A DNA stretch of 64,000 bases from Candidatus Gastranaerophilales bacterium (GTDB taxonomy: Bacteria > Cyanobacteriota > Vampirovibrionia > Gastranaerophilales > Gastranaerophilaceae), in contig OZ007029.1 of NCBI GenBank assembly GCA_963931575.1, positions 189,694-253,693 on the forward strand, in the 5' to 3' direction. The notes below the pieces were generated by a model, which saw only the letters and a list, made by a program, of their open reading frames with translations, was not told the origin of the DNA and did no database searches. The position numbers and the translations under genes were made by a program. Shown in pieces: positions 4,111 to 50,208 of this stretch; position 1 is the stretch's first letter, and each line of letters begins with the position of its first letter.

Positions 4111-4282
4111 AAATTTATTTTATTTCAGACAAAATTAATAAACAATCCTATCAGCATAAAAATCATAAAGCGTTTAAAGATAAAAAAATGTTCAAAAAGT
4201 GTTCAAAAAGCTCTAATGTGATTTTAATAGCAATTTATATATAAATTGTTATTTGTAAATTTAAAGTAGCCTAAAATTGATT

Positions 4283-4705: not shown

Positions 4706-4735
4706 CTTTTCGGCAATTTCATAGTATTTATTTTT

Positions 4736-6382: not shown

Positions 6383-6769
6383 TTAACATTCCGACATAAA
6401 ATTTGTGACAATTTTAAAAGCTAAAATGCAGTAATAATAAGATTTTTTAAAAATGCTATTTTTACAATATTCACCTCAAACACTTTATCTATCTGCTTTA
6501 TAAAAAAGACAAATATTTGTCCTGTTTTTTACGAAGAAATATGAAGTGGTCTTGACGAAACAAGTTTTTGTTATATTTTCGCCATTAAAATAATTATATC
6601 TGCTGTTAAACAAGAATAAATAAGCTCAAAATTATGCTCAGGGAAATTTCCCAATAAGTCTGAAATCTTTAAGCCGGTTAAATCAGGGGTATATTTTGGT
6701 TAATTTTATAATGGGTTAAAATACTGATTTTCTGTTTAAAATCGGGGAAAAATTTATGAAGTTATGTTT

Positions 6770-7435
6770 CTAAAGTTGCACCAAACTCTTTAAATCAAAA
6801 TAAAGCTCTTTAAAGCCTCTTTTTCTCCTCCATAGAGTTTCTGCTATTTTGTAATTCAGGTTATTGGCATTTGTATTATGAGTCAGATTTCTTGACAGGT
6901 AGCAATATATTGTTGTGAACTCAGCTTTTTCCTTAGGTGAGAAAATTCTCTCATTCTCTGTTTTTAAAAGGTTTTCAGATACAAAAATTTCATTAAAATA
7001 GAAATACAAATATACTTCCTTATTGAAAAACTTTCTGTGTCGTGCTTTTTGCGGCTGTTTTAAATAATATGAGTCAAGCTGTCTTTTCTGTCTTTGATAA
7101 ATCAAGGTTCTAAATATTGTATAAAATTTCTGCACCTGATCTTCGCCTATATTTGCAATATTAGATGCCTTTATTGTTTTAATGTCCTCGCAAAAGCTCC
7201 TGATAACAGTATCCGTTACCACGGCAGGATAAAGTTTAAATATAGAATAATTCTGTGTGACAGGGTTTTGTTTGCAATATATGTATTCACTGTTTTTAGT
7301 TATCAATTTGCCTTCCTTAACGAATTCATCCAGTAAAGGCAAAAGGTCGCTTTTCGGAATTTCTGACAATATTTCGAGATTTTCAAGCGAAAATTTGTTT
7401 AGACGTCTGCAAAGCTGTAATATTTTGTCCTTCAT
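6770..7435 (-). CDS. hypothetical protein, third gene of the transposition operon (TniQ position), winged-helix-like N-terminus
   Basis: 221 aa with no motif I recognise. Overlaps the ATPase gene by 53 nt. Confidence 0.3.
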   Translation of the reverse strand: MKDKILQLCRRLNKFSLENLEILSEIPKSDLLPLLDEFVKEGKLITKNSEYIYCKQNPVTQNYSIFKLYPAVVTDTVIRSFCEDIKTIKASNIANIGEDQVQKFYTIFRTLIYQRQKRQLDSYYLKQPQKARHRKFFNKEVYLYFYFNEIFVSENLLKTENERIFSPKEKAEFTTIYCYLSRNLTHNTNANNLNYKIAETLWRRKRGFKELYFDLKSLVQL

Positions 7436-8111
7436 TTAAAATACTCCTTAGATTTTTTTCGTTAAGTTCTTTTAGTTCATTTGTTTTGGCAAGTTTTTCA
7501 ATTTTATTAATCAGTTTTACTATCTGCCTGAACTGATTATGTCTTGTTGCTAGGTACTCCAAGCCGTCATTCATAATCGGGATTTCAGATAGTTCCGATA
7601 GAATTTGCTTAATATCCTGTTTATCATAAGGTTCAAACTTAAATGCTTTATAAATCCTATCTTTCAAATGCGGATATCTTGATAACTTCTTGTCAATATT
7701 TATCATCCCGACCAGTATCATTGGACACCCTGTCCTATCACACAAATCCCTTAAAATCTCAATAACATTATTGTTTACAAGGTAGTCAACCTCATCAATA
7801 ATTAGCGGTTTGGGATTTTGTTTTAACTTCTGTTCAACGAGATTAAACGTATCCTGAATATGCCAGAAAGGTTCTTCCCCTAACTCCTCTACAATTTCTG
7901 ATAATAGCCACCTGCTTGACATTCCCTGGTTTGCTCTTACATATATGCAATCATTTTTAAAAGTCCACCACTTAATTGTTTCCGATTTGCCAAGTCCGTA
8001 TTCACCAAACACCAGAACTATTTTAGGAATATTCGCCGGAAGCTGTTTTACTTCTTCCATCAAGGCAACAAACTTTTTGACATTTTTGGTTCTTACAAAT
8101 ACTTTATTCAT
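7383..8111 (-). CDS. AAA+ transposition ATPase (MuB/TniB/TnsC-like)
   Basis: Walker A VFGEYGLGKSE and Walker B LIIDEVDYL. Begins 2 nt after the transposase stop. Confidence 0.75.
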   Translation of the reverse strand: MNKVFVRTKNVKKFVALMEEVKQLPANIPKIVLVFGEYGLGKSETIKWWTFKNDCIYVRANQGMSSRWLLSEIVEELGEEPFWHIQDTFNLVEQKLKQNPKPLIIDEVDYLVNNNVIEILRDLCDRTGCPMILVGMINIDKKLSRYPHLKDRIYKAFKFEPYDKQDIKQILSELSEIPIMNDGLEYLATRHNQFRQIVKLINKIEKLAKTNELKELNEKNLRSILNEGQNITALQTSKQIFA

Positions 8112-8113
8112 TT

Positions 8114-10093
8114 TTATGCTCCGTATAAATTGTTATATTCATCACTGCTTAAATACTTTTCAAGCCACTTCCGCTGTTCGGGATTAGTGCAACCATATTT
8201 CATTAACCATTCATATTTTTCATAATCTGCATTAAAAACAGGTACATTCATCTGTTGTTCTCTAAAGTTTAATTTGCGTTTTAGTGGTGTTTTAGTCTGT
8301 TCAAATTTTTCAATTTCAATAACTTCTTCCTGTTCAATCTCTATAGCTTCTGCTTTTTCTTTAGGGAAATACTTTAAGAACTCTTTTTTCACTCTCTTAA
8401 ATCTGCGTTGCTGTTTTTGTATTTGTTGCTTAAATTGTTCCATATCTTTTACTGTTCCTAAATGATTTGCCATTGGATGAACTTTTTCAACTTGTCTTGC
8501 GATACATAAAAATTCACCTTTTATTGAATACACAAGGACTTTTGAAAGGTCAAACAAACTGTATTTTATAAATACTTTTTCTCTTAAATCCAATAAATAA
8601 TCACTCCTATAATGCATTCCAAGAAATGTTATTCCATGTTTATTTATTGTTCTTACTTCAGTTTTCATCATAAGGTCGTTCAAAATACTTTTATCAATAT
8701 TCTCTTTTGAAATATCATTTAACATCTCTTGAATAGTTTTTGAACGGTTATTAGGACAAGGTTTTGAATTATGGTAATCGAGCCAGCAATCTATAAATTT
8801 TATTGTTTCTTGAATTGTTGGAATATAGTTTTTTGTTAACTTATTATGCATCTCTCTATGCAATTTTTCTCCTCGCTTCATCCAAGCAGGTTTATTTTCA
8901 ATACTTGTTCCTATATAACTTGTCATCATTTTTTCAAACTCTTCTTGAAATTCAAGAAAGAATCTTTCAATAACTTTTGCTCTTGCATTATATGGTTTTG
9001 CAAAAACTGATTTTATTCCAAGTTTTGTATAAATCCCATTAAACCCAGCTTCGTCAAAATCTATATTTTGAAAATATTTTGCTTTAAATGCTTTTCCGTT
9101 ATCTTGATAAACTACTTTTGGAATCAAGCCGAGATTTAAAATAGAATTTCTTAATGCACTTGCTATGCATTGAGTATTCTCACTCATCATAATTTCATAT
9201 CCGACTAATGCTGTTGATTTCCAATCTAAAAAGCCGACTAAAGTTGCTCTGGTCGGCTTTCCTGTAAATGGATTGATTATTTGAAAATTAAGAACATGTC
9301 CGTCAGCTATCAAAACATCTCCTACTTCAATTTTAGAAATATCTCGTTCTATATACGGTTCAATTTTATCGTGATATGCTTTTTCACCTTCTCTAAATAA
9401 AACCCACTTTGAATAATTGTTTTTCTTAAAATTCTCCGCAAATCTTCTGAATGTTAGATTACAAGGAATATTTTCATATCCTCGCTTTTCTAGAATATGT
9501 TTTGTTAAATTTATAGCTTTTCCGATACTAAATTTATTCGGGTATAACAAATATTTCAAAAATATCTGTTTCATCTCCTCATTCAAAATCGTATTATATT
9601 CACCTTGTTTATTAGTTTTGCGTTTTTGTAGAAGCCCGTCCGTTCCATAATTTTCAAACATCTTAACCCAACGATGGAGTGTTCCTATCGAAATTGAACC
9701 AACAAACTTATATATTTGGGGCAAATACATTCCACTGTTATATAAATCTAAAAATACTGAATCAGCCTCTTTTTTAGTTGGATATTTTTTACGAATATTA
9801 TATAAGGCAGTTACTATATCCACTCTTGCAAGTGCTGTTAATCTTGCATTTTCTGATACAAAATTCCCCTTGTTTTCAAACGAAACAATTGCTGTTGTTT
9901 TTAATTCTTCTTGATCTAATCTATCTTGTATCTCAGGTTCTAATGAAGAATAAAGAATTTCATACGATTTCCCGCCTCTTACTTCAACTTCTCTTGCAAT
10001 ATACTTACCTTGGTTAATTGCAAGTCTTATTGAACGTGTACTTTTTAATCCTTTTAATTCTGCGATTTTGTTAATATTTATATATTCGTCCAT
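8114..10093 (-). CDS. DDE transposase, MuA/TnsB/TniA-like
   Basis: N-terminal HTH (INKIAELKGLKSTRSIRLAINQGK); ADGHVLNF (D1); VYQDNGKAF (D2); AKVIERFF (E); Mu-type C-terminal barrel (INKHGITFLGMHY...KVFIKYSLFDLSKVLVY). Confidence 0.8.
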   Translation of the reverse strand: MDEYININKIAELKGLKSTRSIRLAINQGKYIAREVEVRGGKSYEILYSSLEPEIQDRLDQEELKTTAIVSFENKGNFVSENARLTALARVDIVTALYNIRKKYPTKKEADSVFLDLYNSGMYLPQIYKFVGSISIGTLHRWVKMFENYGTDGLLQKRKTNKQGEYNTILNEEMKQIFLKYLLYPNKFSIGKAINLTKHILEKRGYENIPCNLTFRRFAENFKKNNYSKWVLFREGEKAYHDKIEPYIERDISKIEVGDVLIADGHVLNFQIINPFTGKPTRATLVGFLDWKSTALVGYEIMMSENTQCIASALRNSILNLGLIPKVVYQDNGKAFKAKYFQNIDFDEAGFNGIYTKLGIKSVFAKPYNARAKVIERFFLEFQEEFEKMMTSYIGTSIENKPAWMKRGEKLHREMHNKLTKNYIPTIQETIKFIDCWLDYHNSKPCPNNRSKTIQEMLNDISKENIDKSILNDLMMKTEVRTINKHGITFLGMHYRSDYLLDLREKVFIKYSLFDLSKVLVYSIKGEFLCIARQVEKVHPMANHLGTVKDMEQFKQQIQKQQRRFKRVKKEFLKYFPKEKAEAIEIEQEEVIEIEKFEQTKTPLKRKLNFREQQMNVPVFNADYEKYEWLMKYGCTNPEQRKWLEKYLSSDEYNNLYGA

Positions 10094-10177
10094 ACATACA
10101 GATTAACTCTGAAGTCGGAAATGTGTTCCTTTTTTCCTTCTTTTGTATCATTAGGACATAATTTTATTCAATATACG

Positions 10178-10217
10178 AACCGGACTTTATTTACTTAAAA
10201 TGTCAAATATAATCGTT
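10178..10217 (+). repeat. Direct repeat copy 1 (aaccggactttatttacttaaaatgtcaaatataatcgtt)
   Basis: Identical to 12398-12435 except for a 2-bp TA indel. Lies 85 bp upstream of the transposase start. Confidence 0.9.
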
Positions 10218-10247
10218 GTATGTGTACAGATAAAAATACAAAAGATA

Positions 10248-10556
10248 TTAATTATTATTAGGTTTAGAATCAATATCAGTAGCTTCTATTTTGAAGATTA
10301 CCGGTCTTAATCCATCGTTGCAACTTACAATAGCAACTCCTTTTTCTTTAATCCAATCTCCATAATAAAAAACATCTTCAATTCCGTGAGAAAGTGCAAA
10401 TACATATTGATAAATAGCTTTCCACGCTTCATTACAAAATCCTTCGGGACATTCCCAATCTGCGTAAAATTCTTGTCCTTCTTTTAACATTGGACAAGCT
10501 GTTAAACCATCTACACCATATTGTTGTGAAAGTTCTTTATCAAAGTGCTTTTTCAA
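10248..10556 (-). CDS. small Cys-containing protein, TIGR04076-like
   Basis: 102 aa. CPMLKEGQEF...WECPEGFCNEAW...SCNDGLRPVIFKIE recalls the TIGR04076 family; this recognition is from memory. Confidence 0.45.
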   Translation of the reverse strand: MKKHFDKELSQQYGVDGLTACPMLKEGQEFYADWECPEGFCNEAWKAIYQYVFALSHGIEDVFYYGDWIKEKGVAIVSCNDGLRPVIFKIEATDIDSKPNNN

Positions 10557-10832
10557 AACAGTAATTTTGCATTTTTTAATATTACTATACTCCTTAATAG
10601 GATATTATATTAAAAATTTCTATTTTTTACACTTAATTTAGAAATGTTAACTTTATTTATTTGAGAATAAATATTTGATTAATTCTCCTTAAATATACAC
10701 AGTGAACTTTTCCAGTTTATAAAAATCACTTCTGACCCAAAATTAAATTTCAAATAATCATTTTATTCGAAGAAATAATCTAATTCAAAAGGTAGCATCT
10801 TACAAACTGTAAAGTAAAATGTGAAAACTAAA

Positions 10833-10862
10833 AATTCCACGGGCTATTAATTCCGTGGAATT
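10833..10862 (-). terminator. Rho-independent terminator after the flavoprotein gene
   Basis: aattccacgg...ccgtggaatt stem with a T-rich tail on the minus strand. Confidence 0.5.
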
Positions 10863-10922
10863 TTCAATATCTGAATACGCAAGGCACTTATATCTTTGCT
10901 TTTAGACTTAATGCATCATATC

Positions 10923-11558
10923 TTATTTTATAAAATTTGTGTAAATATAATTTTCAATATTTGGTAAATCGTGATTAGATTTAATATAAAATTCTTTCAT
11001 TTCTAAAAACCAAGCCATATTTGTACCTAATATTCTCATAGTCTGCAGACCTTCTTCATCTTTTTTAACATCTTCAGGCGTCCAACCATGAACCATATTC
11101 CAATATCTTGAAGATATAATAGGCATTTCTGACACTAAAAAATATTTATTTAATTGGTCTAAAGTTGCAGTTGTTCCTGCACGTCTTGCAGAAATTATTG
11201 CTGCACCGGGTTTAAGATAAAACCTCTTTTTATTGCTCAAAGAATCTGCAAAAAAGGCTCTATCTAAAAAAGGTACAATTATACCGCTGGCACTTGCATA
11301 GTGAACAGGAGAACCAAAAATAAATCCATCAGCATTTTCAGCTTTATCAAGGAATTCATTCACTTTATCGTTAATAACACATTTGCCTAATTTTGCACAA
11401 GCTCTGCAATCTCGGCAAGGAGAAATTGCATTTGTTCCAATATAAAATATTTCAGTTTCAATATTTTTTTGATTTAATACATTTGCGACTTCACATAAAG
11501 CAGTATAAGTACAGCCCTGTTTATGTGGTGAACCATTTAGTAAAAGAACTTTCATCAC
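10923..11558 (-). CDS. flavodoxin-like NAD(P)H-dependent FMN reductase / iron-sulfur flavoprotein
   Basis: MKVLLLNGSPHKQGCT N-terminus, CRDCRACAKLGKC cysteine cluster, FGSPVHYASASG. Confidence 0.7.
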   Translation of the reverse strand: MMKVLLLNGSPHKQGCTYTALCEVANVLNQKNIETEIFYIGTNAISPCRDCRACAKLGKCVINDKVNEFLDKAENADGFIFGSPVHYASASGIIVPFLDRAFFADSLSNKKRFYLKPGAAIISARRAGTTATLDQLNKYFLVSEMPIISSRYWNMVHGWTPEDVKKDEEGLQTMRILGTNMAWFLEMKEFYIKSNHDLPNIENYIYTNFIK

Positions 11559-11938
11559 TACTCTCCATAAGATAATGTATCATAAACTTTTGCAACAATT
11601 TTCCAATCACCGTTAATCTTATTCATAATTAATAAATCTGTGAATTTATACCCGTGCCAATTATCTTCAATAACCCTCACTACCGCAATGGTTTTTTCTA
11701 ACGTAATAACATCCACTCTTGCGACATAATCATCTGTGCAAGCCCCCATTTTATCTATAGTATCGTAGAAAAGTTGAATTGAACCTGATTGATATTCTTT
11801 TTCATTTAATTGACCATAGAAGCTTGCCTTTTCATAAAAATAAGGTTTTACAATTTCACTATTACCATTTTTAACAGCTTCAATAAATTTTCTTGCTAAA
11901 TTCTCAACTGTGTTGAATTCTTCTATTTGTTCTCTCAT
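11558..11938 (-). CDS. NTF2/SnoaL-like small protein
   Basis: 126 aa. Alpha+beta cone-like pattern (VRVIEDNWHGYKFTDLLIMNKINGDWKIV). Its stop overlaps the next gene's start. Confidence 0.4.
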   Translation of the reverse strand: MREQIEEFNTVENLARKFIEAVKNGNSEIVKPYFYEKASFYGQLNEKEYQSGSIQLFYDTIDKMGACTDDYVARVDVITLEKTIAVVRVIEDNWHGYKFTDLLIMNKINGDWKIVAKVYDTLSYGE

Positions 11939-12039
11939 ATAATCCTCCTTTACTTTTTACAAGAAGCATGATAAACTTTAGCGGTAATTTATTCAAGTAC
12001 GGATATTTAGGTAACCTACTTACTTTAAAGGAACCATTT

Positions 12040-12384
12040 ATGGAAAAAGAAGAAAAAGATTGCATAAATAGTGTTGAAAGTTTTGAAGAAACTGGATTTA
12101 ATTATACTCTATCTCTAATAAGCGGAAAATATAAACTAACAATTTTATATGCTCTATATAGACATAAAGTAATTCGCTTTAATCAATTACAAAAATATTT
12201 AAAAATGATTTCACATAAAACATTAAGTAATGTATTAAAAGAACTTGAAGCGGATGATTTAATCATAAGAAAAGAATATCCGCAAATTCCTCCTAAGGTT
12301 GAATATTCGTTATCGGAAAAAGGGAAATCACTTATTCCTATACTATATTCATTATGTGAATGGGGAGAGAAGCATAAAATTTAA
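12040..12384 (+). CDS. HxlR-family winged-helix transcriptional regulator
   Basis: LISGKYKLTILYALY...RFNQLQKYL..ISHKTLSNVLKELEADDLIIRKEY..IPPKVEYSLSEKG. ATG 12040 is preferred over the upstream extension in the track. Confidence 0.75.
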   Translation: MEKEEKDCINSVESFEETGFNYTLSLISGKYKLTILYALYRHKVIRFNQLQKYLKMISHKTLSNVLKELEADDLIIRKEYPQIPPKVEYSLSEKGKSLIPILYSLCEWGEKHKI

Positions 12385-12397
12385 AACTTTTTATAGT

Positions 12398-12435
12398 AAC
12401 CGGACTTTATTTACTTAAAATGTCAAATAATCGTT
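12398..12435 (+). repeat. Direct repeat copy 2
   Basis: Matches 10178-10217. Together the two copies bracket the 2.2-kb four-gene cassette. Confidence 0.9.
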
Positions 12436-12615
12436 TTAGCCGTACAAGTTAGATTGTGAGGGCGAAATAGACTATAACATTGATTTTAAAATAGAAAATT
12501 TAAGTCAATTCTTGGACAGTAATCGGACAATGATGACCAAGAAAAGACCCTTTTGTAACATGTAAAACGATTACTTCCGACCGCCAAAGTTCAAACACAA
12601 AGCCAACTTTGCCGA

Positions 12616-12725
12616 ATAATCTTTTTATGCGTTCAGATAAAATGTCCCGTTAAATTACATAAAATGTCCCGTTAAATTACAATAATCTTTTTATGCGTGC
12701 AGATAAAATGTCCCGTTAAATTACA
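12616..12725 (+). repeat. Tandem repeat block: 3 x 23 bp (ataaaatgtcccgttaaattaca) and 2 x 21 bp (aataatctttttatgcgtKcag)
   Basis: 23-mers lie at 12637-12659, 12659-12681 and 12703-12725. 21-mers lie at 12616-12636 and about 12682-12702. The last 23-mer ends in ACA, 45 bp from the tRNA 3' end. Confidence 0.9.
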
Positions 12726-12743
12726 ATTATATATCCAACAAAA

Positions 12744-12765
12744 AAGACCCGCTTCAGCGGGTCTT
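12744..12765 (-). terminator. Terminator of tRNA-Ser
   Basis: aagacccgc-ttca-gcgggtctt hairpin followed by a T-run on the minus strand. Confidence 0.7.
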
Positions 12766-12770
12766 AAATT

Positions 12771-12860
12771 CGGAGACGGAGAGATTCGAACTCTCGGTGC
12801 AGGTAGCCCCACACAACACCTTAGCAGGGTGCCGCCTTAAGCCAACTCGGCCACGTCTCC
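12771..12860 (-). tRNA. tRNA-Ser (anticodon GCU), class II with a long variable arm; no encoded CCA
   Basis: Reverse complement is GGAGACGTGGCCGAGTTGGCTTAAGGCGGCACCCTGCTAAGGTGTTGTGTGGGGCTACCTGCACCGAGAGTTCGAATCTCTCCGTCTCCG. It folds by hand: 7-bp acceptor stem, anticodon loop CTGCTAA, T-arm GAGAG-TTCGAAT-CTCTC. Confidence 0.9.
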
Positions 12861-12956
12861 TTCCTACATGATGTTACCTCCTCATACTATCACAAAAAAA
12901 CTTTTTTGCAAACTATTTCATTTTATAGTATGATATTTTTCAGAGGTTATTTAATT

Positions 12957-20794: not shown

Positions 20795-20823
20795 TTGACT
20801 AATTCTAAAACATGGTACATAAT
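20795..20823 (+). promoter_or_regulatory. Consensus-like sigma70 promoter of pilin paralogue 1
   Basis: TTGACT-17 bp-CATAAT. The block ...AACATGGTACATAATG is conserved in all five paralogue loci. Confidence 0.7.
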
Positions 20824-20827
20824 GAAG

Positions 20828-20933
20828 AAGGCAATAAGGCAATAAGAGAATAAGGCAATAAGTCGTAGTGGCCAAATGGAAGAAAAAAGAATAGTCCTAT
20901 TGCCATAATGCCCTATTAACTTATTGCCTTATT
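20828..20933 (+). repeat. Long AT-rich inverted-repeat leader built from GGCAATAAG / CTTATTGCC units (copy 1)
   Basis: Left arm is aaggcaataaggcaataagagaataaggcaataag. Right arm is ctattgccataatgccctattaacttattgccttatt. Confidence 0.85.
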
Positions 20934-21106
20934 CCAGTAGTTTGGGCTTTCCAGCCCAACGGAACAAAAAGAAAGGATCGGCGGTCGGCGCGAGCGAGCC
21001 GAGAGTGGAGTGCGTGACGCACGTAACTCGTTTTCGGCGAGTCGAGCAAGAAAAGCCGGTACCATAATTAGACAATGGCGGAACGCCAGAAAGGATAGAA
21101 GAACTT

Positions 21107-22390
21107 ATGAAAAACCGAAGTGTAACAAATTATGCAGGGGGGGGGGGGAGCCGCTCAACCGGTAAATCCTGCACCTTAGGCATCAATGTCATTCAGAACA
21201 GCGAACGAAGCGAGCGTGATTCAGGATCTGACAAGTGTAGCGAACTACCGGTGTCGTTGGACAGATCCCGAAATAAATTCGGAATGACACCGCCGGTCAA
21301 GGCGGCTTCCTGTTTGGGTTGGTCGTTAAAAGGTCATGTTCAACCCTTGTGGATGGCACTCAGTGCCTTTACCATGGCAGCCAGGCTGAGCCGCTCGACT
21401 GAGTCGGTCGCTGAGCGACTTCCACAATTGAATCCGAGCAAGAATTTAGCATTCACAATGGCAGAAATCTTATTATCCCTCACGATAATCGGAGTTGTGG
21501 CGGCGATAACGCTTCCAAGCCTTACCGGAAACATTAATGAGCGCACATGGAACACGCAGCGAAAAGCCCTCTATGCCAGAATGAGTCAGGCGATTGCGCT
21601 TATGCCAGCATTAAATGGCTATGGTACACTGACCGAAGGCGACAGTTCGACTTCAGCAGAGGATACCGCCGCTGAAACCTTTGTCACAGCAGGTTTATCA
21701 AAAGTTCTTAAAATAAATAACATCTGTGACAGCGAGCACCTTGAAGATTGCGGAATTGTTTCACAGATTACAAATCTGCAGGCCAGTAAGGTCAATGTTC
21801 CAACTACTCTTGTCGGATTGAATCCTATGTTTAACAGTACTTTTATTGGCGGGCCGACTGGCAGCGGAAGCTTTACTTATTCCCAACTTGACACTAAGGC
21901 TGCTGCGTTTGAAACCGCTAATGGTGAAAGTATAATTGTCTACTATAATCCGGCCTGCCAATCTGATTTGGCGGAAACTGAATGGAATTACAGGCAGGCT
22001 AAAATGTGTGCGAACTTTATTTATGACCTGAATGGAAGTAAAGGACCTAATACTTTTGGTAAAGATATAGGGGTTATAACCGTATTGTATCCTTCGGATT
22101 CTTCTGTCGTTGCTCCGATACCGGCGTCAGTCAGGAGCGCCGGTTCATCATCGCAGAGAGATGCCGGTAAATTATGCCTGTCACAGGATTCAGAAGGTCG
22201 TGTTCCTAATAGGGATGAACTTGCTGCTGTATTTTATAATAGAGTTATGTTTGGGCTTCCGGGCAGCGATTACTTTTGGACCAGTTCTGTCATAGATTCT
22301 TCTAATGGCTGGGGACAAAGCTTTTATACCGGTCGTGCTGCAATATTGCCGCGAACAGGCGGATATAATGTCTGGTGCGTTAAACGTTAA
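21107..22390 (+). CDS. pilin-like adhesin paralogue 1: long hairpin-module leader, prepilin N-terminus and DUF1566-like C-terminus; in frame with its SD-ATG
   Basis: AFTMAEILLSLTIIGVVAAITLPSLTGNINERTWNTQRKALYAR; DLNGSKGPNT; C-terminal RVPNRDELAAVF...YFWTSS...VWCVKR. Confidence 0.75.
   Translation: MKNRSVTNYAGGGGSRSTGKSCTLGINVIQNSERSERDSGSDKCSELPVSLDRSRNKFGMTPPVKAASCLGWSLKGHVQPLWMALSAFTMAARLSRSTESVAERLPQLNPSKNLAFTMAEILLSLTIIGVVAAITLPSLTGNINERTWNTQRKALYARMSQAIALMPALNGYGTLTEGDSSTSAEDTAAETFVTAGLSKVLKINNICDSEHLEDCGIVSQITNLQASKVNVPTTLVGLNPMFNSTFIGGPTGSGSFTYSQLDTKAAAFETANGESIIVYYNPACQSDLAETEWNYRQAKMCANFIYDLNGSKGPNTFGKDIGVITVLYPSDSSVVAPIPASVRSAGSSSQRDAGKLCLSQDSEGRVPNRDELAAVFYNRVMFGLPGSDYFWTSSVIDSSNGWGQSFYTGRAAILPRTGGYNVWCVKR
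21137..21148 (+). repeat. Poly-G tract, G12, 30 nt after SD-ATG 21107 (in frame)
   Basis: Counted directly; encodes GGGG in the ORF track protein MKNRSVTNYAGGGGSRS. Confidence 0.9.
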
Positions 22391-24673: not shown

Positions 24674-25909
24674 TTGCACGGGGGGGGGGGGGGGCCGGCT
24701 GAGCCGACCGCTGAGCGGTACCCACGACTGAACCCGAGCGACTGGACAAAGAAATCCCCATATTGTCATCCTGAACTGCGCGAGCGAGCAGAGGCACAAA
24801 GCGAAAACCACGCTTTTCGCGGTGCCGTTTTGCGCGAGTCGAGCAAGACAGATTCAGGATCTGACCAGTGTTGCGAACTACCGGTGTCGCTGGCCAGATC
24901 CCGAAATAAATTCGGGATGACATTACAGAAAATAACCATGTCTTGTGGTTTTACAATGGCAGAAATCCTGTTATCCCTCACGATAATCGGCGTTGTGGCG
25001 GCGATAACGCTACCAAGTTTAACCGGAAATATTAACGAGCGGACGTGGAACACTCAGCGAAAAGCGCTTTATGCACGACTTTCACAGGCAATATCTCTAA
25101 TGCCTGCTCTGAACGGTTACGGAACATTAAAAGAGGAAAGTTCTGCCGGTGCGAGTGATGCAGTGGATACTGTTGCAGAAACTTTTTTAACGGCAGGACT
25201 TTCAAAAGTTCTTAAAATAAATAACATCTGCGATAATGAACATCTACCTGATTGCGGTCTGTCGTCCAGAATTACAAATCTTGCGGCAAGTCAGATTGAT
25301 TTACCGTTGAAGTTGTCTGATTTGAATCCGCTTAATATATATGTATCTCAATCGTGGAGTGCAACGACATCGCATGGTGCCGGCTCTAGATATTATTCTA
25401 TGATGGATGCAAAAGCCGCTGCATTTGAAACCGCTAATGGTGAAAGTGTTGTCGCTTATTACAATTCGTCTTGCGCGCCTTCAATGTCCGAGAGTGCAGG
25501 TATTTATGCCGCAGCTAAGATTTGTGTAAGTTTTCTTTATGACCTGAACGGGAACAAAGGCCCGAATACTGTTGGTAAAGATCTCGGTTTGATCACGGTA
25601 TATTATCCTTCCGATAGTCTGGTTGTTGCTCCGGTGCCTTATTCACGCGATGCAGGAGTGTTAGTTTCAGATTCCGGTGTTAATAGCATTTGTAAATCTC
25701 TGGATGAAGATTACCGGCTGCCTACTATCGAAGAATTGGGGGCGCTTTCCTTTAACTCTGAACTTATAGGAAATTTAGATGCTGAGCGTTATGCCTCATC
25801 CACTTTCCTATCTTCTTCCAAAAAATGGTATTTACATGCCGACTCAGGAATATTGAATGTAGATGACAGATTTTCTACGACTTCGGACATCAGATGTGTT
25901 AAAAGATAA
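24674..25909 (+). CDS. pilin-like adhesin paralogue 2; frame is open from the poly-G tract; alternative conventional start at ATG 24917
   Basis: SCGFTMAEILLSLTIIGVVAAITLPSL...; DLNGNKGPNT; C-terminal YRLPTIEELGALS...DIRCVKR. Confidence 0.7.
   Translation: MHGGGGGPAEPTAERYPRLNPSDWTKKSPYCHPELRERAEAQSENHAFRGAVLRESSKTDSGSDQCCELPVSLARSRNKFGMTLQKITMSCGFTMAEILLSLTIIGVVAAITLPSLTGNINERTWNTQRKALYARLSQAISLMPALNGYGTLKEESSAGASDAVDTVAETFLTAGLSKVLKINNICDNEHLPDCGLSSRITNLAASQIDLPLKLSDLNPLNIYVSQSWSATTSHGAGSRYYSMMDAKAAAFETANGESVVAYYNSSCAPSMSESAGIYAAAKICVSFLYDLNGNKGPNTVGKDLGLITVYYPSDSLVVAPVPYSRDAGVLVSDSGVNSICKSLDEDYRLPTIEELGALSFNSELIGNLDAERYASSTFLSSSKKWYLHADSGILNVDDRFSTTSDIRCVKR
24680..24694 (+). repeat. Poly-G tract, G15, after SD-ATG 24648 (out of frame; +1 or -2 G needed)
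   Basis: Counted directly. The ATG 24648 frame stops at about 24723 (MEKRKSVTICTGGGGGRLSRPLSGTHD*). Confidence 0.9.
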
Positions 25910-26171: not shown

Positions 26172-28145
26172 TTGACTAAAGAAGCAGTTGAAACGCAACA
26201 AAAACTGAATAAGGCGAAGAAGCGTGTTGAGAAACAGGCTACCAACCCTATTTCCGGTTTATCCAAAGCGCCGGAATTGAAGGTTACAAAGAGTGCCTCG
26301 AACGTATTATCAATAGAGTCGCAGGCGCCGAAAATTCAGGAGCCGGAAAACAAACAGCAGCGTAACGCGGAAATGGCACCCGGCTTAATTGCTACTATAA
26401 ACACTTTTAACGCGAATAAATCACACAACCGTCTTTATAGCGGCTATGCAAGCAATCCTATTGCCGGAAAGGCTGTCGTAAACGGAAACGAACTGGCTAA
26501 TGCGGTTTGTTCGGCACTGAAAAACAGAACGGATATTTCAGAACTTTTTGTCGCTATTCATAACACCTGCTGCGAAAAACTTAACAGTATTTATACAGGT
26601 TTCGGGCTTTATCACGAAACCTCCAGATGCATAGATTTTAAACTTTTTTCTAAAATCGGCGGAACATATTCCTCAAAAATCTTCCAGTCTGACAGCGAAA
26701 ACCCTATTATGGAATGTTTTACCACACAAAAACCAGTCATTCTGAAAGATAATAAGTTCTTAAATATTCCGTACCTGAAAAATTCAGAAACGATAATTCT
26801 GCCGCTGATGTCGATTGATAAATGCCTTGGCATAATGCTTTTAGGCAGAAATGACCTTGTGAACAATCTGGAGCTTCTGGGCTTTATTGCAAACTATTGC
26901 GGTCTGTTTATTCATAATTTTGAACTTATTGAACGAACCGCAAAATACGCAAATACAGACACTTTGACCGGCATGTACACCCACCGAGGATTTCAGGAAG
27001 TGCTCTCTGCCGAACTTGAAAAAGCTAAAACAAATAAAACACCGCTTTCGATTGTTATGTTTGACGTTAATAACATTTCAAAAATTAACAGAGAACTCGG
27101 GCATGCCAAAGGTGATGAGGTTATTAAGGTTCTGGCGGAAAAGATTAAACAGAGTGCAAGAAATTCCGATATTGCAGGACGCTACGGCGGCGATGAGATT
27201 GCTTTGATTTTACCTAACACAAACACCGCTGATGCAAAATATCTTGCAGAATACATAACTTACTGCCTGTCTTGCTGCTTTATTGATGATGTAGGGCCGG
27301 TTAAGGTTGCGGTTGGTATTTCTACATATCCTGATTGTTCGGAAAATCAGGAAAAATTGCTGATACTTGCAGAACAGGCAATGATTATTTCGCAGGCAAA
27401 GGGCTACAAAGAGGGTATGTCTGCGATTATAAGCTCTTCGGACTTCAATTTCTGGGATGATGAGGCGCTCAGTTCATTCGCGCAGGTTATCTCCAAGCGC
27501 CACTCGCAATTGGGAATTAATTATGAAGAAGAACTTGTACAGAAATTCAATACTTCAGAAGTCAAATCGCACAATCACCTTGTAGAAATGGTTACGTCAT
27601 TAACCGCTGCAATTGATGCGAAGGATCCATATACAAAAGGTCACTCAACTTCTGTGTCAAGGTATTCAGAGGCGCTTGCACGTGCAATAAATCTTCCTGA
27701 AGAAGAGGTTCAACGAATTGCACTCGGGGCACAGCTTCACGATGTCGGCAAAATCGGTATCCCTGAAAATGTCTTGAGAAAAACTGATAAACTTTCGGAT
27801 GAAGAATGGGAAATTATGAAACAGCACCCGACGATTGGGGCAGAAAAGGTTCTTGAACCAAATCCTGGTTTAAGAGATTTGATTCCGATGGTAAAATATC
27901 ACCATGAAAAAATCGACGGAACAGGCTATCCTATGGGCTTGAAGGGGGATGAAATTCCGCTTGAAGCAAGGATAATCTCCGTTGCGGATGCGTATCACGC
28001 ACTTGTAAGTGACAGACCGTACCGTAAGGGCATGCCGCTGGAAAAGGCGTGTGCGATTTTGAAAGACGGCGCGGGCAAACACTGGGATGCGAATCTCGTA
28101 AGACATTTTATCGCGATTGCACCGTCACTTTCTACAAGTGTGTAA
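26172..28145 (+). CDS. multidomain c-di-GMP enzyme: sensor (GAF-like) + GGDEF + HD-GYP
   Basis: RYGGDEIAL (GGDEF site). LHDVGKIGIP and HHEKIDGTGYP (HD-GYP). TTG start as in the track. Confidence 0.8.
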   Translation: MTKEAVETQQKLNKAKKRVEKQATNPISGLSKAPELKVTKSASNVLSIESQAPKIQEPENKQQRNAEMAPGLIATINTFNANKSHNRLYSGYASNPIAGKAVVNGNELANAVCSALKNRTDISELFVAIHNTCCEKLNSIYTGFGLYHETSRCIDFKLFSKIGGTYSSKIFQSDSENPIMECFTTQKPVILKDNKFLNIPYLKNSETIILPLMSIDKCLGIMLLGRNDLVNNLELLGFIANYCGLFIHNFELIERTAKYANTDTLTGMYTHRGFQEVLSAELEKAKTNKTPLSIVMFDVNNISKINRELGHAKGDEVIKVLAEKIKQSARNSDIAGRYGGDEIALILPNTNTADAKYLAEYITYCLSCCFIDDVGPVKVAVGISTYPDCSENQEKLLILAEQAMIISQAKGYKEGMSAIISSSDFNFWDDEALSSFAQVISKRHSQLGINYEEELVQKFNTSEVKSHNHLVEMVTSLTAAIDAKDPYTKGHSTSVSRYSEALARAINLPEEEVQRIALGAQLHDVGKIGIPENVLRKTDKLSDEEWEIMKQHPTIGAEKVLEPNPGLRDLIPMVKYHHEKIDGTGYPMGLKGDEIPLEARIISVADAYHALVSDRPYRKGMPLEKACAILKDGAGKHWDANLVRHFIAIAPSLSTSV

Positions 28146-28953: not shown

Positions 28954-31900
28954 TTACCCCTCTTTTAACACTCTGTCGAGGCAGGCGTCTTTTGAATAAT
29001 GCCATTCGCGGTAGGTTATTCTGCGCACTGTGAATCCGCACCGTTCCAGTATTGCCTGTTTTTTCATGTTGCTGATACGGGATTTCTGGTTGTCCTCAAC
29101 GCCGTCGACTTCTATAATCAATTTGTTATCTACAACCAGATCCGCGCTAAGACTTGCGATTTCAACACCGGTCTGAACATTATGACCCAGTGCGCGGATT
29201 TCGTTGGCAATTTCTTTTTCAAGCGGATTTTTGTAGATGTTTTCGTCAAAATCCTCGGAGTTTGAAAGTTTCAACCTATCTCGGTACTGCTGCATAAAGG
29301 AAATATAGTTTCTGAAATGACCTTCCGGCAGGCCGGATGGGTCGCGTGAAACAAAATTGATAACTTTATTTCTTCCGCGCGTAATTGCAACGTTAAAGAG
29401 GTTTGCTTTTTGCAGGAAGGTTATGCTTTGCGTGAAGCTGTTGTCCGCAAATGCCCATGAAATCAGCATTATATCGCGTTCATCTCCCTGAAAGGTGTGG
29501 GCGGTACCGATTTCAATTTCGTGCTTTTTAATCATGTGATCGGAAAGAACTTTGGAAACAGCGACTTTCAATGCTTCCACCTGCGCGCGGAACGGGGAAA
29601 TAAGCCCGATTGTGACAGGTTTATCAGGATTATTGCGCTCATCTTCGACGACTATGTCGTAAAGGCGTTTTACGACCGCTTCGACCTCCGGAAGGTTTCG
29701 GGTTGCGTCAAAGTCAACTTTTCCGTCAGGCACCTGAACGAGTTCCAGAACGGGTGTTTTTTCAAAATCTTTTCTCATAATACGGATTTTGCCGTTATAA
29801 AATTCACGGTTTGAAAACTCAATAATCGGCGGCAGCGAGCGGAAGTGCTCGTCCAGCATAACGGAATTCATTGAGTAGTAGTCTGCAAGATCAAACATGG
29901 AATTTGTTCTGAAACGCCAGATAAGCTGGTATTTTTCAGGGATTCCGTACTGGCTGAGGAACGATTGTTCTTTGGCTTTTTCGAGGAATGACAGGTGCGG
30001 AAGCTGTTTGTCGTCGCCTACGATTACTGCACGTTTTGCGCGGAAAAGTATCGGGAAGCAGCTTGCTATATCGCATTGCGATGCTTCGTCAATTATTGCA
30101 ACATCAAACATTCCCGGCTTTAGCGGGAGTGAATCCGAAACCGCATAAGTTGTTACACACCAGCAAGGGAAAGCGTCAAGCAGCGGACGGAAATCTTCCT
30201 CTGCCAGAATTGTGTCCTGAATACGTTTTCTGTTCGCGGTTAGTGCTTTTGCGTGGATTTTCAGGCGGCGTTTTTTGTTTTCGTCGAATAAAAGCGATTT
30301 TAACGACTCACGGCGGGTGTTTTTCAAAATGTTTACCGCAAGCGTTTTTTGTTCGGCTTTTTTCTTTTTGATATGCGCTGTTAGCTGGTGAAGGTTTCCT
30401 GTTTTTTGAATTTCGTTTTCGATTTTTCTAAGGTCATAAAGCAAAGATTCAAAATCCAGTTCTTCGTTCAAACGCGATAAATTTTCAAGAGTTACGTCAA
30501 AATGCTTTAGTTTAAGTGTCTTTTTGAGCTTCAATTCACTGAAAAAGTTGAGAATTTTTGCGATAATCCCCATTTTTTCAAGATTTTTTTCTAACGTTTT
30601 TGAGATAAGTTTGAGGGTTTCAATGTCGAGTTTTTTGAGTGAATTTTTCACGTATTGCATTTGCCCGACAACGCTTTCTTCCTCTTCGACAATGAGGTTC
30701 TGGTCGTGCCATTCGCGCTCTAACTTGATTATTTTTTCGCACTTGCCCTCAATTTCTTTGATGTAATCGAGGTGGTCTTTCATATCCTCGACCGTTGCAA
30801 AAATGCTGTCCTCTAAGTCCTCATCAAGAATTGAGTCGTCTGCAAGAAGGTTATTTAATTCTTCGCTGAGCATTCTCTGGTAATTCAGACGTCCGGCGCG
30901 GAGTGCCATATATTTTGCCCCGAGAGCGTTAAGCCTATCGGCAACGACATCAACGGCTTTATCCATACGGGAAGCCACAAGGACAGTTTTGCCGTTTGCA
31001 ACAAGGTGCGAAACAAGGTTAACAATTGTTTGTGATTTACCTGTTCCCGGAGGCCCCTGAACCGCTACGAATTTACTGTTATCAATGTTTTTTATAACCA
31101 TTTCCTGAGAATCGCTTAACGATAAAGGCGTTACAGGGTAGAAGTCTGTAATATTTCTGATATCTTGAAGCGGAACGGATTTTTCTTTTGACTGCGCATA
31201 TTCTTCATTGATAATGCTCAATGCTGTTTCGCGGTAGATGCCGCTCGGCTTTTCCGCAATCTGTGTTAATTCGTGCAGAACACCAGCTGTGACTGATGGA
31301 CGCTTTGTTAAAATTATCGCACTTTGATAGGTTACACAGACTTTTTCAAGCTTTACCGCGGCTTTTTGGGTGTTTTCCTCTTCTTCAATAACATCTTCAA
31401 CGTTTTCGGCCGTAATTTTTTCTTCCGTATAAAACTCTTTTGCAGCTTTGGTGATATTATCTTCTTCAACGTAATCCGCGGTGTTTGATGTTATTTCAAT
31501 GTCAGGAATGAGCGATTTCAGGGTCGTGAGGAAGATATCGAGTTTTTCCTGCGTAATCGGAAGATCAGGCACAACGTTTAAAATTCCTTCTAAAAGGATA
31601 TCTACTTCATCTTCATCGTCATTTTTGCGCATTAAAGCGGCAAGTGCGCCGGTGTTGAGCGAAAGCACTTCATCCATCGGAAAACAATTTATATTAACGC
31701 CGTTGCGCTCCAAACGGCACGGCATATACAAAAGCGGGGTGAGAAATTCGTTTGCCTTTTTTGATTTAGAACTTTTCCCTACTAAAAAGAGATAACCGTA
31801 GATAAGGTATTTGTCGCGTGCACCGTGTTCTGATTGAAGCATAAGTTCGGTAAGCTTCGGGTCCGCACCGTCTAGCGGTATGTATTCCTGAAAATTAGAA

Positions 31901-32076
31901 AATAACTGCTCCTCGCCTTTCAGGAAAATCCATTTGTTATCTTTATCGCCCTTAAGGTTGCGGAAAGTCGAACTTTTAACTTCTTCCCGAACGCAGTCGT
32001 GAAGATACTGGCTTAACTTTTTTATAAAACTGTTGTTGAACGCGGAATTTATTGCTCTGGTAGCTTCTTGTAACAT
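28954..32076 (-). CDS. SF1B (Upf1/DNA2-like) helicase fused to a C-terminal DUF559/Vsr-like PD-(D/E)xK endonuclease domain
   Basis: GPPGTGKSQT; IIDEASQ; VGDDKQLPH; HFRSLPPIIEFSN; TFQGDERD; NVAITRGR. C-terminus has DLVVDNKLIIEVDGVEDNQ...RRITYREW. ATG 32076 follows GGGGAGAG. Confidence 0.8.
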   Translation of the reverse strand: MLQEATRAINSAFNNSFIKKLSQYLHDCVREEVKSSTFRNLKGDKDNKWIFLKGEEQLFSNFQEYIPLDGADPKLTELMLQSEHGARDKYLIYGYLFLVGKSSKSKKANEFLTPLLYMPCRLERNGVNINCFPMDEVLSLNTGALAALMRKNDDEDEVDILLEGILNVVPDLPITQEKLDIFLTTLKSLIPDIEITSNTADYVEEDNITKAAKEFYTEEKITAENVEDVIEEEENTQKAAVKLEKVCVTYQSAIILTKRPSVTAGVLHELTQIAEKPSGIYRETALSIINEEYAQSKEKSVPLQDIRNITDFYPVTPLSLSDSQEMVIKNIDNSKFVAVQGPPGTGKSQTIVNLVSHLVANGKTVLVASRMDKAVDVVADRLNALGAKYMALRAGRLNYQRMLSEELNNLLADDSILDEDLEDSIFATVEDMKDHLDYIKEIEGKCEKIIKLEREWHDQNLIVEEEESVVGQMQYVKNSLKKLDIETLKLISKTLEKNLEKMGIIAKILNFFSELKLKKTLKLKHFDVTLENLSRLNEELDFESLLYDLRKIENEIQKTGNLHQLTAHIKKKKAEQKTLAVNILKNTRRESLKSLLFDENKKRRLKIHAKALTANRKRIQDTILAEEDFRPLLDAFPCWCVTTYAVSDSLPLKPGMFDVAIIDEASQCDIASCFPILFRAKRAVIVGDDKQLPHLSFLEKAKEQSFLSQYGIPEKYQLIWRFRTNSMFDLADYYSMNSVMLDEHFRSLPPIIEFSNREFYNGKIRIMRKDFEKTPVLELVQVPDGKVDFDATRNLPEVEAVVKRLYDIVVEDERNNPDKPVTIGLISPFRAQVEALKVAVSKVLSDHMIKKHEIEIGTAHTFQGDERDIMLISWAFADNSFTQSITFLQKANLFNVAITRGRNKVINFVSRDPSGLPEGHFRNYISFMQQYRDRLKLSNSEDFDENIYKNPLEKEIANEIRALGHNVQTGVEIASLSADLVVDNKLIIEVDGVEDNQKSRISNMKKQAILERCGFTVRRITYREWHYSKDACLDRVLKEG

Positions 32077-32155
32077 TATCTTTTTCTCTCCCCTTGTGCT
32101 TTTAAGTATAGCAAAAATAGGGCACTGTTGCAATAATTTGTGTTATAATTTCAAT

Positions 32156-44928: not shown

Positions 44929-44933
44929 AAGAG

Positions 44934-50204: not shown

Positions 50205-50208
50205 GAAG

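Follow-up and report, generated by a model that had tools for sequence, protein, structure and literature searches.

REP-type palindromes in the predicted leaders of phase-variable pilin-like genes of Candidatus Gastranaerophilales

Five pilin-like genes with poly-G tracts

The window (the whole 64-kb stretch of DNA that was analyzed) comes from Candidatus Gastranaerophilales (Melainabacteria/Vampirovibrionia) and contains five paralogous pilin-like genes, each with a poly-G tract followed, before the predicted prepilin cleavage site, by a long leader-coding region (the leader) that harbors short palindromes of the repetitive extragenic palindromic (REP) type. The window is 93-97% identical to DNA of the metagenome-assembled genome (MAG) BRZ_KI_bin23, and likewise 93-97% identical to contig CALUQY010000011.1, which is not the same sequence. 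There are dozens of family genes per genome, scattered singly among housekeeping genes (e.g., IF-2, SecA, RF-1, PheS, YchF). Scanning GTDB with one genome for each species yielded 477 confirmed family copies, all of them in Gastranaerophilales/Melainabacteria MAGs (one carries the label 'Fusobacterium sp.'), with many copies at contig ends. At least 2427 homologues are present in the protein database, nearly all of them unnamed metagenome proteins, and many have long N-terminal extensions with the same peptide strings in varying order. Family-wide comparisons are based on a set of related loci (1.29 Mb, ~10-20% of each genome sampled), in which 143 family genes were found, and on 47 unique leaders of at least 90 nucleotides (nt) (11.4 kb, 53% GC), referred to below as the long leaders.

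The genes share a common layout: a sigma-70-like promoter (TTGACT-17-CATAAT), a long 5' untranslated region (5'UTR), a Shine-Dalgarno (SD) sequence and ATG, ~10-16 codons, the poly-G tract, the leader, the predicted cleavage site [A/G]↓FTMAE (arrow, cleavage) and a hydrophobic helix. In the five window copies, the SD sequence AAAGGA and the ATG are followed by ~10 codons and a tract of G12-15, and the leaders extend over 180-306 nt (~50% GC) from poly-G to the [A/G]↓F junction. The five copies with poly-G and FTMAE that an initial annotation had described are all present, and the pilin frame is open back through the poly-G tract in 5/5:

21137-21148, + strand: poly-G of copy 1; first base of FTMAE at 21452
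24680-24694, + strand: poly-G of copy 2; first base of FTMAE at 24950
45151-45163, + strand: poly-G of copy 3; first base of FTMAE at 45347
50367-50380, + strand: poly-G of copy 4; first base of FTMAE at 50561
54417-54428, - strand: poly-G of copy 5; first base of FTMAE at 54110
21107-21148, + strand: start of copy 1, with ATG at 21107, 10 codons and a G12 phase-variation tract; the sole ON copy of the window

The cleavage motif [A/G]↓FTMAEILLSLTIIGVVAAITLP and the mature N-terminus FTMAEILLSLTIIGVVAAITLPSLTGNINERTWNTQRKALYAR do not vary among the five copies, and the features of a prepilin are present (small residue at -1, F+1, E+5, ~21 hydrophobic residues). Of 120 genes, 88 have A and 32 have G at position -1. 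A match of the C-terminus to Lcl_C is weak. One of the related loci contains a gene (L066 7202-8281) whose product begins, by eye, like the pilus-retraction ATPase PilT.

Tracts of at least G8 occur in 99 of 120 genes (range G8-G16), and 98 genes retain an SD-ATG 10-16 codons 5' of the tract. The most common length is G13, which is mainly OFF, while G12 is mainly ON; in the assemblies, 23 genes are ON vs. 75 OFF. Among the window copies, ATG and pilin frame are in register in copy 1 alone. One and the same 306-nt leader is OFF behind G12 (window copy 5) and ON behind G11 in another sample, and copy 2 has G15 against G13 in its close relative. The possibility that poly-G is an artefact of two-color sequencing was rejected because the tracts are internal and position-specific in 99/120 genes across independent assemblies, with conserved coding context around them.

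Evidence for translation of the leader

A poly-G tract of at least 8 is found within 900 nt upstream of 102 of the 143 family genes, and in 97 of these 102 the pilin frame is open as far as the tract, over 10-552 nt. The pilin frame of the long leaders contains 16 stops in total, compared with 227 and 193 in the other two sense frames and 159, 93 and 117 in the antisense frames; it is stop-free in 43 of the 47 long leaders, and each of the other frames in 0-8. By dinucleotide shuffling, the probability of an open frame ranges from 0.0055 to 0.12 per window leader, with a joint probability of 1.7e-8 for the five. The stops in the other five frames and the shuffles rule out GC content as the cause of the open frames, an explanation that the initial annotation had considered and that the frame-dependent changes of TGA to CGA described below also contradict. 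Its caveat that the antisense frames are open as well proved incorrect: the copy 1 leader has 0/7/6 stops in the sense and 6/3/5 in the antisense frames, and copy 2 has only one open antisense frame.

The deficit of stops in the pilin frame indicates that the leaders are translated, and on these statistics the leader is a translated spacer between slippage switch and prepilin cleavage site. The whole leader is 76-117 amino acids (aa) long in the window (60-102 codons after poly-G); the family reaches 184 codons after poly-G, and database homologues ~250 aa. The leader peptides are hydrophilic, with a transmembrane-like window in 0/47 and a median net charge of +5.9 per 100 aa, and Pfam found no domain in them. 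The leader presumably stays in the cytoplasm and is removed by prepilin peptidase.

An inverted REP dimer in the leaders

The core element of the leaders is an inverted dimer (85-88 nt) of a 29-nt hairpin with a TGTC head, an 8-bp stem, a 5-nt loop and a CTG tail. Arm A has the form tGTCAT-nnnGAA-CTTGT-TTCnnn-ATCTGtc and is followed by a ~31-nt spacer and by arm B, gaCAGAT-nnnGAA-AyAAr-TTCnnn-ATGACa, the reverse complement of arm A. The stem, A[T/C]nCnGAA / TTCnGn[A/G]T, begins with AT and encloses the loop CTTGT or AyAAr; the TGTC head is found in all Gastranaerophilales arms. Four copies carry additional, nested sequence within the arm A loop, of 18 nt (copies 1 and 3), ~72 nt (copy 2) and 110 nt (copy 5). 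The leaders and their modules are as follows:

21149-21451, + strand: copy 1 leader, 303 nt and 101 codons from poly-G to A↓FTMAE, open in the pilin frame only
21187-21289, + strand: copy 1 inverted REP dimer (covariance-model match 21185-21291, 70 bits)
21187-21230, + strand: arm A of copy 1, TGTCATTCAGAAC, 18-nt loop insert, GATTCAGGATCTG
21262-21289, + strand: arm B of copy 1, CAGATCCCGAAATAAATTCGGAATGACA, after the spacer
21290-21382, + strand: copy 1 module 'PPVKAASCLGWSLKGHVQPLWMALSAFTMAA', starting with a terminator-like hairpin
21290-21305, + strand: the terminator-like hairpin of copy 1, CCGCCGGTCAAGGCGG + CTTCCTGTTT
21356-21366: inverted TGA-loop mini-hairpin of copy 1, GCACTCAGTGC
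21365-21382, + strand: duplicate of the pilin N-terminus codons in copy 1, GCCTTTACCATGGCAGCC, closing the 'PPVKAASCLGWSLKGHVQPLWMALSAFTMAA' module
21396-21418, + strand: two GC-rich TGA-loop mini-hairpins of copy 1, CGACTGAGTCG and TCGCTGAGCGA
24695-24949, + strand: copy 2 leader, 255 nt, OFF (G15); TGA mini-hairpins at 24696-24706 and 24708-24718
24764-24922, + strand: copy 2 REP dimer; arm A 5' half 24764-24777 and 3' half 24851-24863, arm B 24895-24922
24778-24850, + strand: nested insert (~72 nt) in the arm A loop of copy 2
45164-45346, + strand: copy 3 leader, 183 nt, OFF (G13); TGA mini-hairpin at 45177-45187
45220-45323, + strand: copy 3 REP dimer, with an 18-nt loop insert in arm A
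45330-45341, + strand: TGTCATTGCGTG head in copy 3
50381-50560, + strand: copy 4 leader, 180 nt, OFF (G14)
50426-50513, + strand: intact 88-nt REP dimer of copy 4; arm A 50426-50453, arm B 50486-50513
50544-50556, + strand: CGTCATTGCGAGC head in copy 4
54111-54416, - strand: copy 5 leader, 306 nt, OFF (G12); TGA mini-hairpins at 54400-54410 and 54144-54154
54156-54353, - strand: copy 5 REP dimer, with a structured, nested 110-nt insert (54228-54337) in the arm A loop

The duplicate at 21365-21382 is a second set of cleavage-site codons (SAFTMAA..., without Glu5) located 5' of the genuine A↓FTMAE. Such sets also occur in many database leaders, and they suggest recombination or duplication events inside the conserved block that encodes the N-terminus.

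The modules named in the initial annotation lie where it had placed them, in constant orientation relative to the gene, and its ccgccggtcaaggcgg / CCGCCGGTCAAGGCGG element was confirmed 5' of the promoters of copies 3 and 5 as well. Its gtcat..gaac, gattcaggatctg and agatcccgaa..atgaca modules exist, but as parts of the one inverted dimer rather than as separate elements; the gtcat...gattcaggatctg unit, given as ~150 nt in copies 2 and 5, measures 99 nt and 137 nt, respectively, and gtgcgTGAcgcac, listed as a leader module, sits in the copy 1 5'UTR. Apart from this CCGCCGGTCAAGGCGG element and from GC-rich cTGAg hairpins, which are also present in the copy 1 and copy 2 5'UTRs, the modules are confined to the leaders within the 64 kb, as claimed. 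As for the contrast drawn between GC-rich modules and an AT-rich genome, the leaders have ~53% GC and the genome ~40%.

The local hairpins are conserved as base-paired structures. They are 97.7% paired, with covariation at three stem positions and 24 doubly changed cells, which is matched by 0/500 shuffles; complete dimers number 17. Long-range pairing of arm A with arm B was rejected as a conserved structure (0 compensatory cells, pairing below the shuffle mean), although minimum free energy folds of single sequences favor it. Folding of the leader RNAs, which had been proposed as a check, gave z-scores of -1.8 to -5.6 relative to shuffles over the five leaders, and four of them (-2.7 to -5.6) fold significantly better. 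GC-rich 6-bp hairpins have densities of 6.5/kb in leaders, 5.1/kb in UTRs and 0.47/kb in the rest of the window, and 8 are present in leaders vs. a mean of 0.6 in shuffled leaders. Other repeat types in the leaders are the TGA-loop mini-hairpins and the GTCATTGCGAG... and CCGCCGGTCAAGGCGG... REPs; CCGCCGGTCAAGGCGG + CTTCCTGTTT scores as terminator-like in the copy 1 leader. An Rfam search of the whole window at the gathering threshold, and of the copy 1 and copy 5 regions to an E-value of 1, returned a single tRNA plus generic look-alikes of hairpins or terminators; ribozymes and known leader RNAs were not among the matches. In the copy 5 insert, CTGA...GAAA is reminiscent of a hammerhead, a reading abandoned upon inspection by eye because stem II is missing between the motifs.

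The reading frame as a probable filter on the repeats

Identical arm DNA is read in all three frames across genes, giving LSSRTxFGIC, CHPELxSxS or VILNxxQ, which shows that the peptide is not the conserved entity. Where the TGA of the stem sequence CTGAA would be read in frame, it is replaced by CGA in 20 of 20 arms, accompanied by the compensating change in the opposite stem half, whereas arms read out of frame retain TGA in 32 of 38 cases and have CGA in 4 (Fisher p = 1.4e-11 vs. in-frame arms). Both the TGA and the CGA stem variants are present in intergenic copies and in other phyla, suggesting that a leader accepts a variant only in a frame compatible with it. For arm B, the frame that turns its invariant terminal ATGACA into TGA is practically unused, and inserts that differ between relatives have lengths in multiples of three.

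Distribution, insertion and turnover

A covariance model of the dimer detects ~36 distinct places in the 1.29 Mb, with ~29 in pilin leaders and 7 elsewhere (five intergenic, one at a 3' gene end and one leader-like remnant). This corresponds to ~29 places per roughly 13 kb of leader vs. 7 per ~1.27 Mb, an enrichment of two to three orders of magnitude; the initial annotation had considered that the modules might be abundant throughout the genome with no leader bias, which is not the case even though copies outside leaders exist. At L029 8370-8460, a REP dimer supplies the last 17 codons (VIPNLFRDLSGDTDSI) of a gene, with the stop coming from the spacer; by eye, this gene is presumably a tRNA nucleotidyltransferase. 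TGA mini-hairpins number 64 in pilin 5' regions and 24 elsewhere.

In L084, a close relative of copy 2 with shared promoter, UTR and start, the loop is empty (GAACTTGTTTC), so the 72-nt (24-codon) insert of copy 2 is a true insertion polymorphism. Between poly-G and the cleavage site, the median leader spans 15-18 nt in one pair of genomes, 87 nt and 145 nt in a second pair, and 255 nt in the reference genome closest to the window. Positional orthologues in a ~95% identical genome have entirely different leader modules, with lengths of 255 vs. 432 nt for copy 2 and 306 vs. 552 nt for copy 5, and all of these leaders are open in frame. The lineage-dependent lengths and the different module sets of orthologues suggest that the modules are dispensable, recent and rapidly turning over. 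Leaders can be 100% identical while the 5'UTRs are unrelated, with recombination breakpoints at poly-G and the conserved N-terminus, and a conserved leader adjoins mature codons with 6 synonymous changes in 30 nt. At window positions 63137-63164, 27 nt take the place of an additional pilin-like gene of BRZ_KI_bin23 with poly-G and a 309-nt leader (L056 9560-10996), a presence/absence polymorphism of a family member.

Only one gene for a REP-associated tyrosine transposase (RAYT)-like protein was found in the 1.3 Mb sampled. This Y1_Tnp gene (L003 4434-5165, contig CALUQY010000023.1 of BRZ_KI_bin23; PF01797, 39.8 bits; motifs HFH and YIHYNPVKHG) is flanked by GTAG REPs GTAGGTTGGGCTTGCCAGCCCAAC (GTAGGTTGGGC...GCCCAAC), the type that is also present in the 5'UTRs of copies 1 and 4. 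The gene region (4434-5240) contains an in-frame copy of the gene's own REP (4887-4906) and an in-frame TGA located inside a ~110-nt GC-rich insert (~4600-4720).

The hairpin itself extends beyond this lineage. Sphingomonadaceae plasmids (e.g., L078 2501-2525, Novosphingobium resinovorum pSA2) carry an exact match to 25 nt of arm A, GTCATCCTGAACTTGTTTCAGGATC, and the same hairpin forms intergenic dimer arrays on the Treponema saccharophilum plasmid pTS1 (L079 2300-2530) and occurs in one copy in Sulfurovum. The pTS1 and pSA2 hairpins share the stem variants ATGCTGAA, ATTCCGAA and ACCCCGAA with this lineage. Such sequence conservation of a 25-29 nt hairpin across phyla appears striking for a REP, and, in a speculative reading, the 25-nt hairpin might be recognized by a widely shared host or transposition factor. 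The dimer had no match in a phage collection.

Comparison with known repeats and leaders

The closest published counterparts are the CGTC-tagged REPs (Di Nocera, De Gregorio and Rocco 2013, PMC3733652), a super-family to which Rickettsia RPE-4/RPE-6 and Neisseria dRS3 belong. They consist of a tetranucleotide head, an 8-9 bp stem opening with two A-T/T-A pairs, a loop of 4-5 nt and a tail of 3 unpaired nt (consensus CCA), and are mostly arranged as inverted dimers with 20-100 bp spacers, sometimes structured, with no dedicated transposase (PMC3733652). Most are intergenic, near the 3' ends of genes; some lie inside open reading frames (ORFs), where a dimer contributes 20-30 aa and intragenic clusters encode up to 43-82 aa, and the hosts belong to five reported phyla, including Sphingomonads, Sulfurovum and Spirochaetes (PMC3733652). 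The elements described here share the start of the stem, the 5-nt loop, the inverted dimers and the intergenic, 3'-end and intragenic locations, and the hosts named in that text are exactly the taxa in which the 25-nt arm was refound. They differ in head (TGTC, not CGTC) and tail (CTG, not CCA). In Novosphingobium and Treponema, this hairpin is found with a CGTC as well as with a TGTC head, and the Novosphingobium copy has a CCA tail, as does another REP type in leaders of the reference genome (GTCATTGCGAGG...GCAATCCA). Further differences from the published description are the host, Melainabacteria not being among the five phyla it reports, the concentration in the leader of one gene family instead of a scattered distribution, and the length of the translated clusters (up to 184 codons vs. 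43-82 aa). Assignment to CGTC-2 is based on the features described in the text of PMC3733652; a peptide search in the supplements of that paper gave no match.

REPINs are REP doublets that form hairpins, are extragenic and are linked to a flanking RAYT (Bertels and Rainey 2011, PMC3116915). The dimers resemble them in having two inverted REPs and a spacer, in their alternative 'long hairpin' and 'clover' folds, in nesting into clusters and in the presence of a RAYT in the closest reference genome. Unlike REPINs, they lie inside a translated region in ~29 of ~36 places, and the RAYT that was found (10-20% of genomes sampled) is flanked by the other REP (GTAGGTTGGGC...), not by TGTC arms. The inverted ends (TGTCAT...ATGACA) are also those of a classical miniature inverted-repeat transposable element (MITE), although no consistent target-site duplication was found here. 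The REP-like nature proposed in the initial annotation is supported by REP structure and insertion polymorphism. Rickettsia palindromic elements (RPEs), as summarized in PMC10969869 (Ogata et al. 2000), are likewise inserted in frame in ORFs, translated and tolerated provided that function is undisturbed. In that account, RPEs reside in many unrelated housekeeping proteins and are kept in the mature protein, whereas here several nested repeats per gene lie in a predicted cleaved segment of paralogous contingency genes.

In Neisseria, hypermutable tracts (poly-G in pilC, CTCTT in opa) lie in regions coding for signal peptides. The pilin-like genes are similar in that a slippage repeat in the leader-coding part switches ON and OFF by frameshift, independently among paralogues; they differ in phylum and in the type of signal peptide, which is class III (prepilin) here and class I in Neisseria. 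To our knowledge, no accumulation of REPs between tract and cleavage site has been described for Neisseria. The opa case is also given in PMC3745409. Class III signal peptides have a hydrophilic, cytoplasmic leader of 6-26 aa that is cut at the cytoplasmic face by prepilin peptidase (Berry and Pelicic 2015, PMC4471445). Type IV pilins and the family thus agree in the hydrophilic leader, the small -1 residue, F+1, E+5 and ~21 hydrophobic residues, but not in leader length (76-117 aa in the window) or in the residue at -1 (Ala in 73%). Literature searches with leader peptide strings, with DNA strings, and for pilin or phase variation in Gastranaerophilales/Melainabacteria yielded nothing relevant. 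Intragenic repeats of the REP or RPE type are known; the extreme, family-wide form within a phase-variable prepilin leader is what distinguishes this case, with leaders 3-10 times longer than any described.

Origin of the leader repeats

We consider it probable that REP/REPIN-like repeats colonized a permissive, cleaved prepilin leader in which only the open pilin frame filters them. The basic form of the gene would have ~5 codons between poly-G and the cleavage site, and in some lineages, including this one, this interval would have been invaded by short REP palindromes. Because the leader presumably stays in the cytoplasm and is cut off, its sequence and length would hardly matter, and the sole filter on insertion would be that the pilin frame is left open. 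Such a filter accounts for reading in three frames, compensated TGA-to-CGA changes, avoidance of one frame by arm B and inserts in multiples of three. In a compact genome, the leader may be one of few sites where an intragenic repeat is free of cost, frame permitting, and repeats could spread by nesting into or beside existing repeats and by duplication and gene conversion among paralogues, turning the 5' regions of family genes into repeat sinks. The initial annotation had left open whether the elements colonized the leader or were recruited into it; the ~5-codon leaders of two related genomes and the three-frame reading favor the former.

Several observations weigh against this explanation. 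Stops occur in 4 of the 47 long leaders, which hold all 16 pilin-frame stops, and some genes seem to start internally (e.g., L001 at 10408); translation is read from sequence statistics, and cleavage is predicted. Ala occupies -1 in 73% of genes, whereas Gly is canonical, and the Pfam N_methyl match (17.8 bits) is under its 21.2-bit threshold. The stems stay almost perfectly paired within a translated region, which could reflect selection for structure, young age or templated correction. Leader enrichment of at least 100-fold over other intergenic DNA exceeds what permissiveness alone predicts, and the TGA mini-hairpins are biased toward the sense orientation (52 vs. 12), which an open-frame filter alone would not favor. 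No consistent target-site duplication was found at the seven non-leader or five leader copies, and no transposase was linked to the TGTC-headed arms in the 1.3 Mb sampled; the RAYT of L003 is flanked by the GTAG REP instead, and its ORF is broken by the in-frame TGA. The size of the enrichment, the sense bias of the mini-hairpins and the enzyme that moves the TGTC arms are thus not accounted for by colonization, leaving room for a functional role of the hairpins, namely to tighten the OFF state.

That the hairpins are kept for such a role at the mRNA level is unlikely in our assessment but deserves consideration. In OFF cells, ribosomes would stop within ~50-70 nt, and the naked leader would fold into highly stable REP-dimer structures and a terminator-like hairpin that block internal initiation or trigger termination or decay, while in ON cells ribosomes would melt the folds. 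The folding of four of five leaders, the terminator-like CCGCCGGTCAAGGCGG + CTTCCTGTTT inside the copy 1 leader and the covarying stems agree with this, as do the sense-biased TGA mini-hairpins, which often directly follow poly-G and give an immediate stop in one OFF frame, and the excess of OFF-frame stops in the sense (227, 193) over the antisense strand (93-159). However, related genomes use ~5-codon leaders without hairpins in the same family, orthologous genes hold unrelated module sets, and the same elements occur in ordinary intergenic DNA and in other phyla; covariation in a palindrome can come from templated correction or transposase recognition with no function in RNA. In a more specific version, which we regard as speculative and rather doubtful, the REP hairpins would be a translation-sensing device built from selfish DNA and selected for tighter stochastic switching across dozens of paralogues: the ribosome-free leader of an OFF cell would fold and shut down downstream pilin mRNA or leaky internal initiation, and ribosomes in ON cells would unfold it. 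Alternatively, the palindromic modules might be sites of homology or breakage at which promoters, switches and leaders are swapped for antigenic or adhesin variation. The mosaic breakpoints at poly-G and the conserved N-terminus, with identical leaders behind unrelated 5'UTRs, the leader conserved beside synonymously changed mature codons, the replacement of whole leaders between ~95% identical genomes and the duplicated 'AFTMA' codons within leaders are all in line with recombination, but homology is already provided by a near-invariant, 135-nt N-terminal coding block and by poly-G, swapping a cut-off leader leaves the surface protein unchanged, and no recombinase or G4-type initiator was found near the genes, making this explanation quite improbable.

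Two further explanations concern the leader itself. If it were part of an untranslated 5'UTR, the pilin would start at an internal ATG or TTG just before FTMAE, and poly-G would act on a short upstream ORF or on transcription. In-frame internal starts do occur near FTMAE in copies 2, 3 and 4 (MSCG↓F, LSLRVG↓F and MQCVRKCLPSLRAA↓F), and gene callers often pick internal starts; nevertheless, the stop-free pilin frame of 43/47 long leaders (0-8 for other frames), the frame-dependent replacement of TGA by CGA and the conserved SD-ATG 5' of poly-G in 98 genes would all be left unexplained, and we judge this very improbable. A functional pro-domain (e.g., a chaperone or targeting region) in which RSRNKFGMT, CHPEL and VQGDK are conserved as peptide, is harder still to defend and in our view scarcely credible: peptide strings recur across hundreds of homologues, but the arm DNA gives unrelated peptides in its three frames, the conserved feature is base pairing, related genomes are without the modules and Pfam found no domain.

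Other features of the window

Two further repeats lie in 5'UTRs:

20988-21051, + strand: GCGCGAGCGAGC...GCGAGTCGAGCAAGA module, untranslated, in the copy 1 5'UTR; also nested in the copy 2 leader
50289-50312, + strand: GTAG-tagged REP GTAGGTTGGGCTTGCCAGCCCAAC in the copy 4 5'UTR; variant at 20940-20960 in the copy 1 UTR

Direct repeats of the GGCAATAAGG type followed by the complement CCTATTGCCTTAT occur in four 5'UTRs, those of copies 1, 3, 4 and 5 (20822-20935, 44925-45100, 50205-50285 and 54500-54610); these repeats, absent from copy 2, are expected to pair as a long AT-rich hairpin, and in Rfam they resemble only generic miRNA precursors. Three genes of the GGDEF or GGDEF + HD type, associated with cyclic di-GMP (26172-28145, 43890-44846 and 56973-58880), adjoin or lie near pilin-like copies, and a comparable GGDEF/pilin pairing is present downstream of the copy 2 relative in L084.

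Positions 1-12900 have 26-35% GC, compared with ~40% in the rest of the window, and end near a tRNA (12771-12860, - strand). This low-GC part includes a 659-aa ORF (8114-10093) with a weak match to IS481-type transposases. Cumulative GC skew reverses at ~13-14 kb, and the low-GC start may be an island or a switch of the origin/terminus type. A 1059-aa ORF resembling a superfamily 1 helicase (28954-32133, - strand) has partial, sub-threshold matches to the anti-phage helicase families ProA, PLuB and Hhe.

Implications

With at least 2400 database proteins, these poly-G-switched pilin-like genes form a very large family in a lineage common in human and animal guts. The leaders break assemblies and mislead gene callers, so that many database entries begin at an internal Met or in the UTR. 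With these findings, the known hosts of CGTC-type REPs come to include the non-photosynthetic sister lineage of Cyanobacteria. The leaders offer a clean natural experiment, in which an intragenic selfish palindrome keeps its pairing, the peptide is irrelevant, and stops are removed by compensated changes in the frame that is read and in no other. If the leaders are indeed translated and cleaved, prepilin peptidases and targeting by the signal recognition particle would tolerate cytoplasmic leaders of 60-250 aa, up to 10 times the textbook range, and this tolerance would be useful for the annotation and engineering of pilins.

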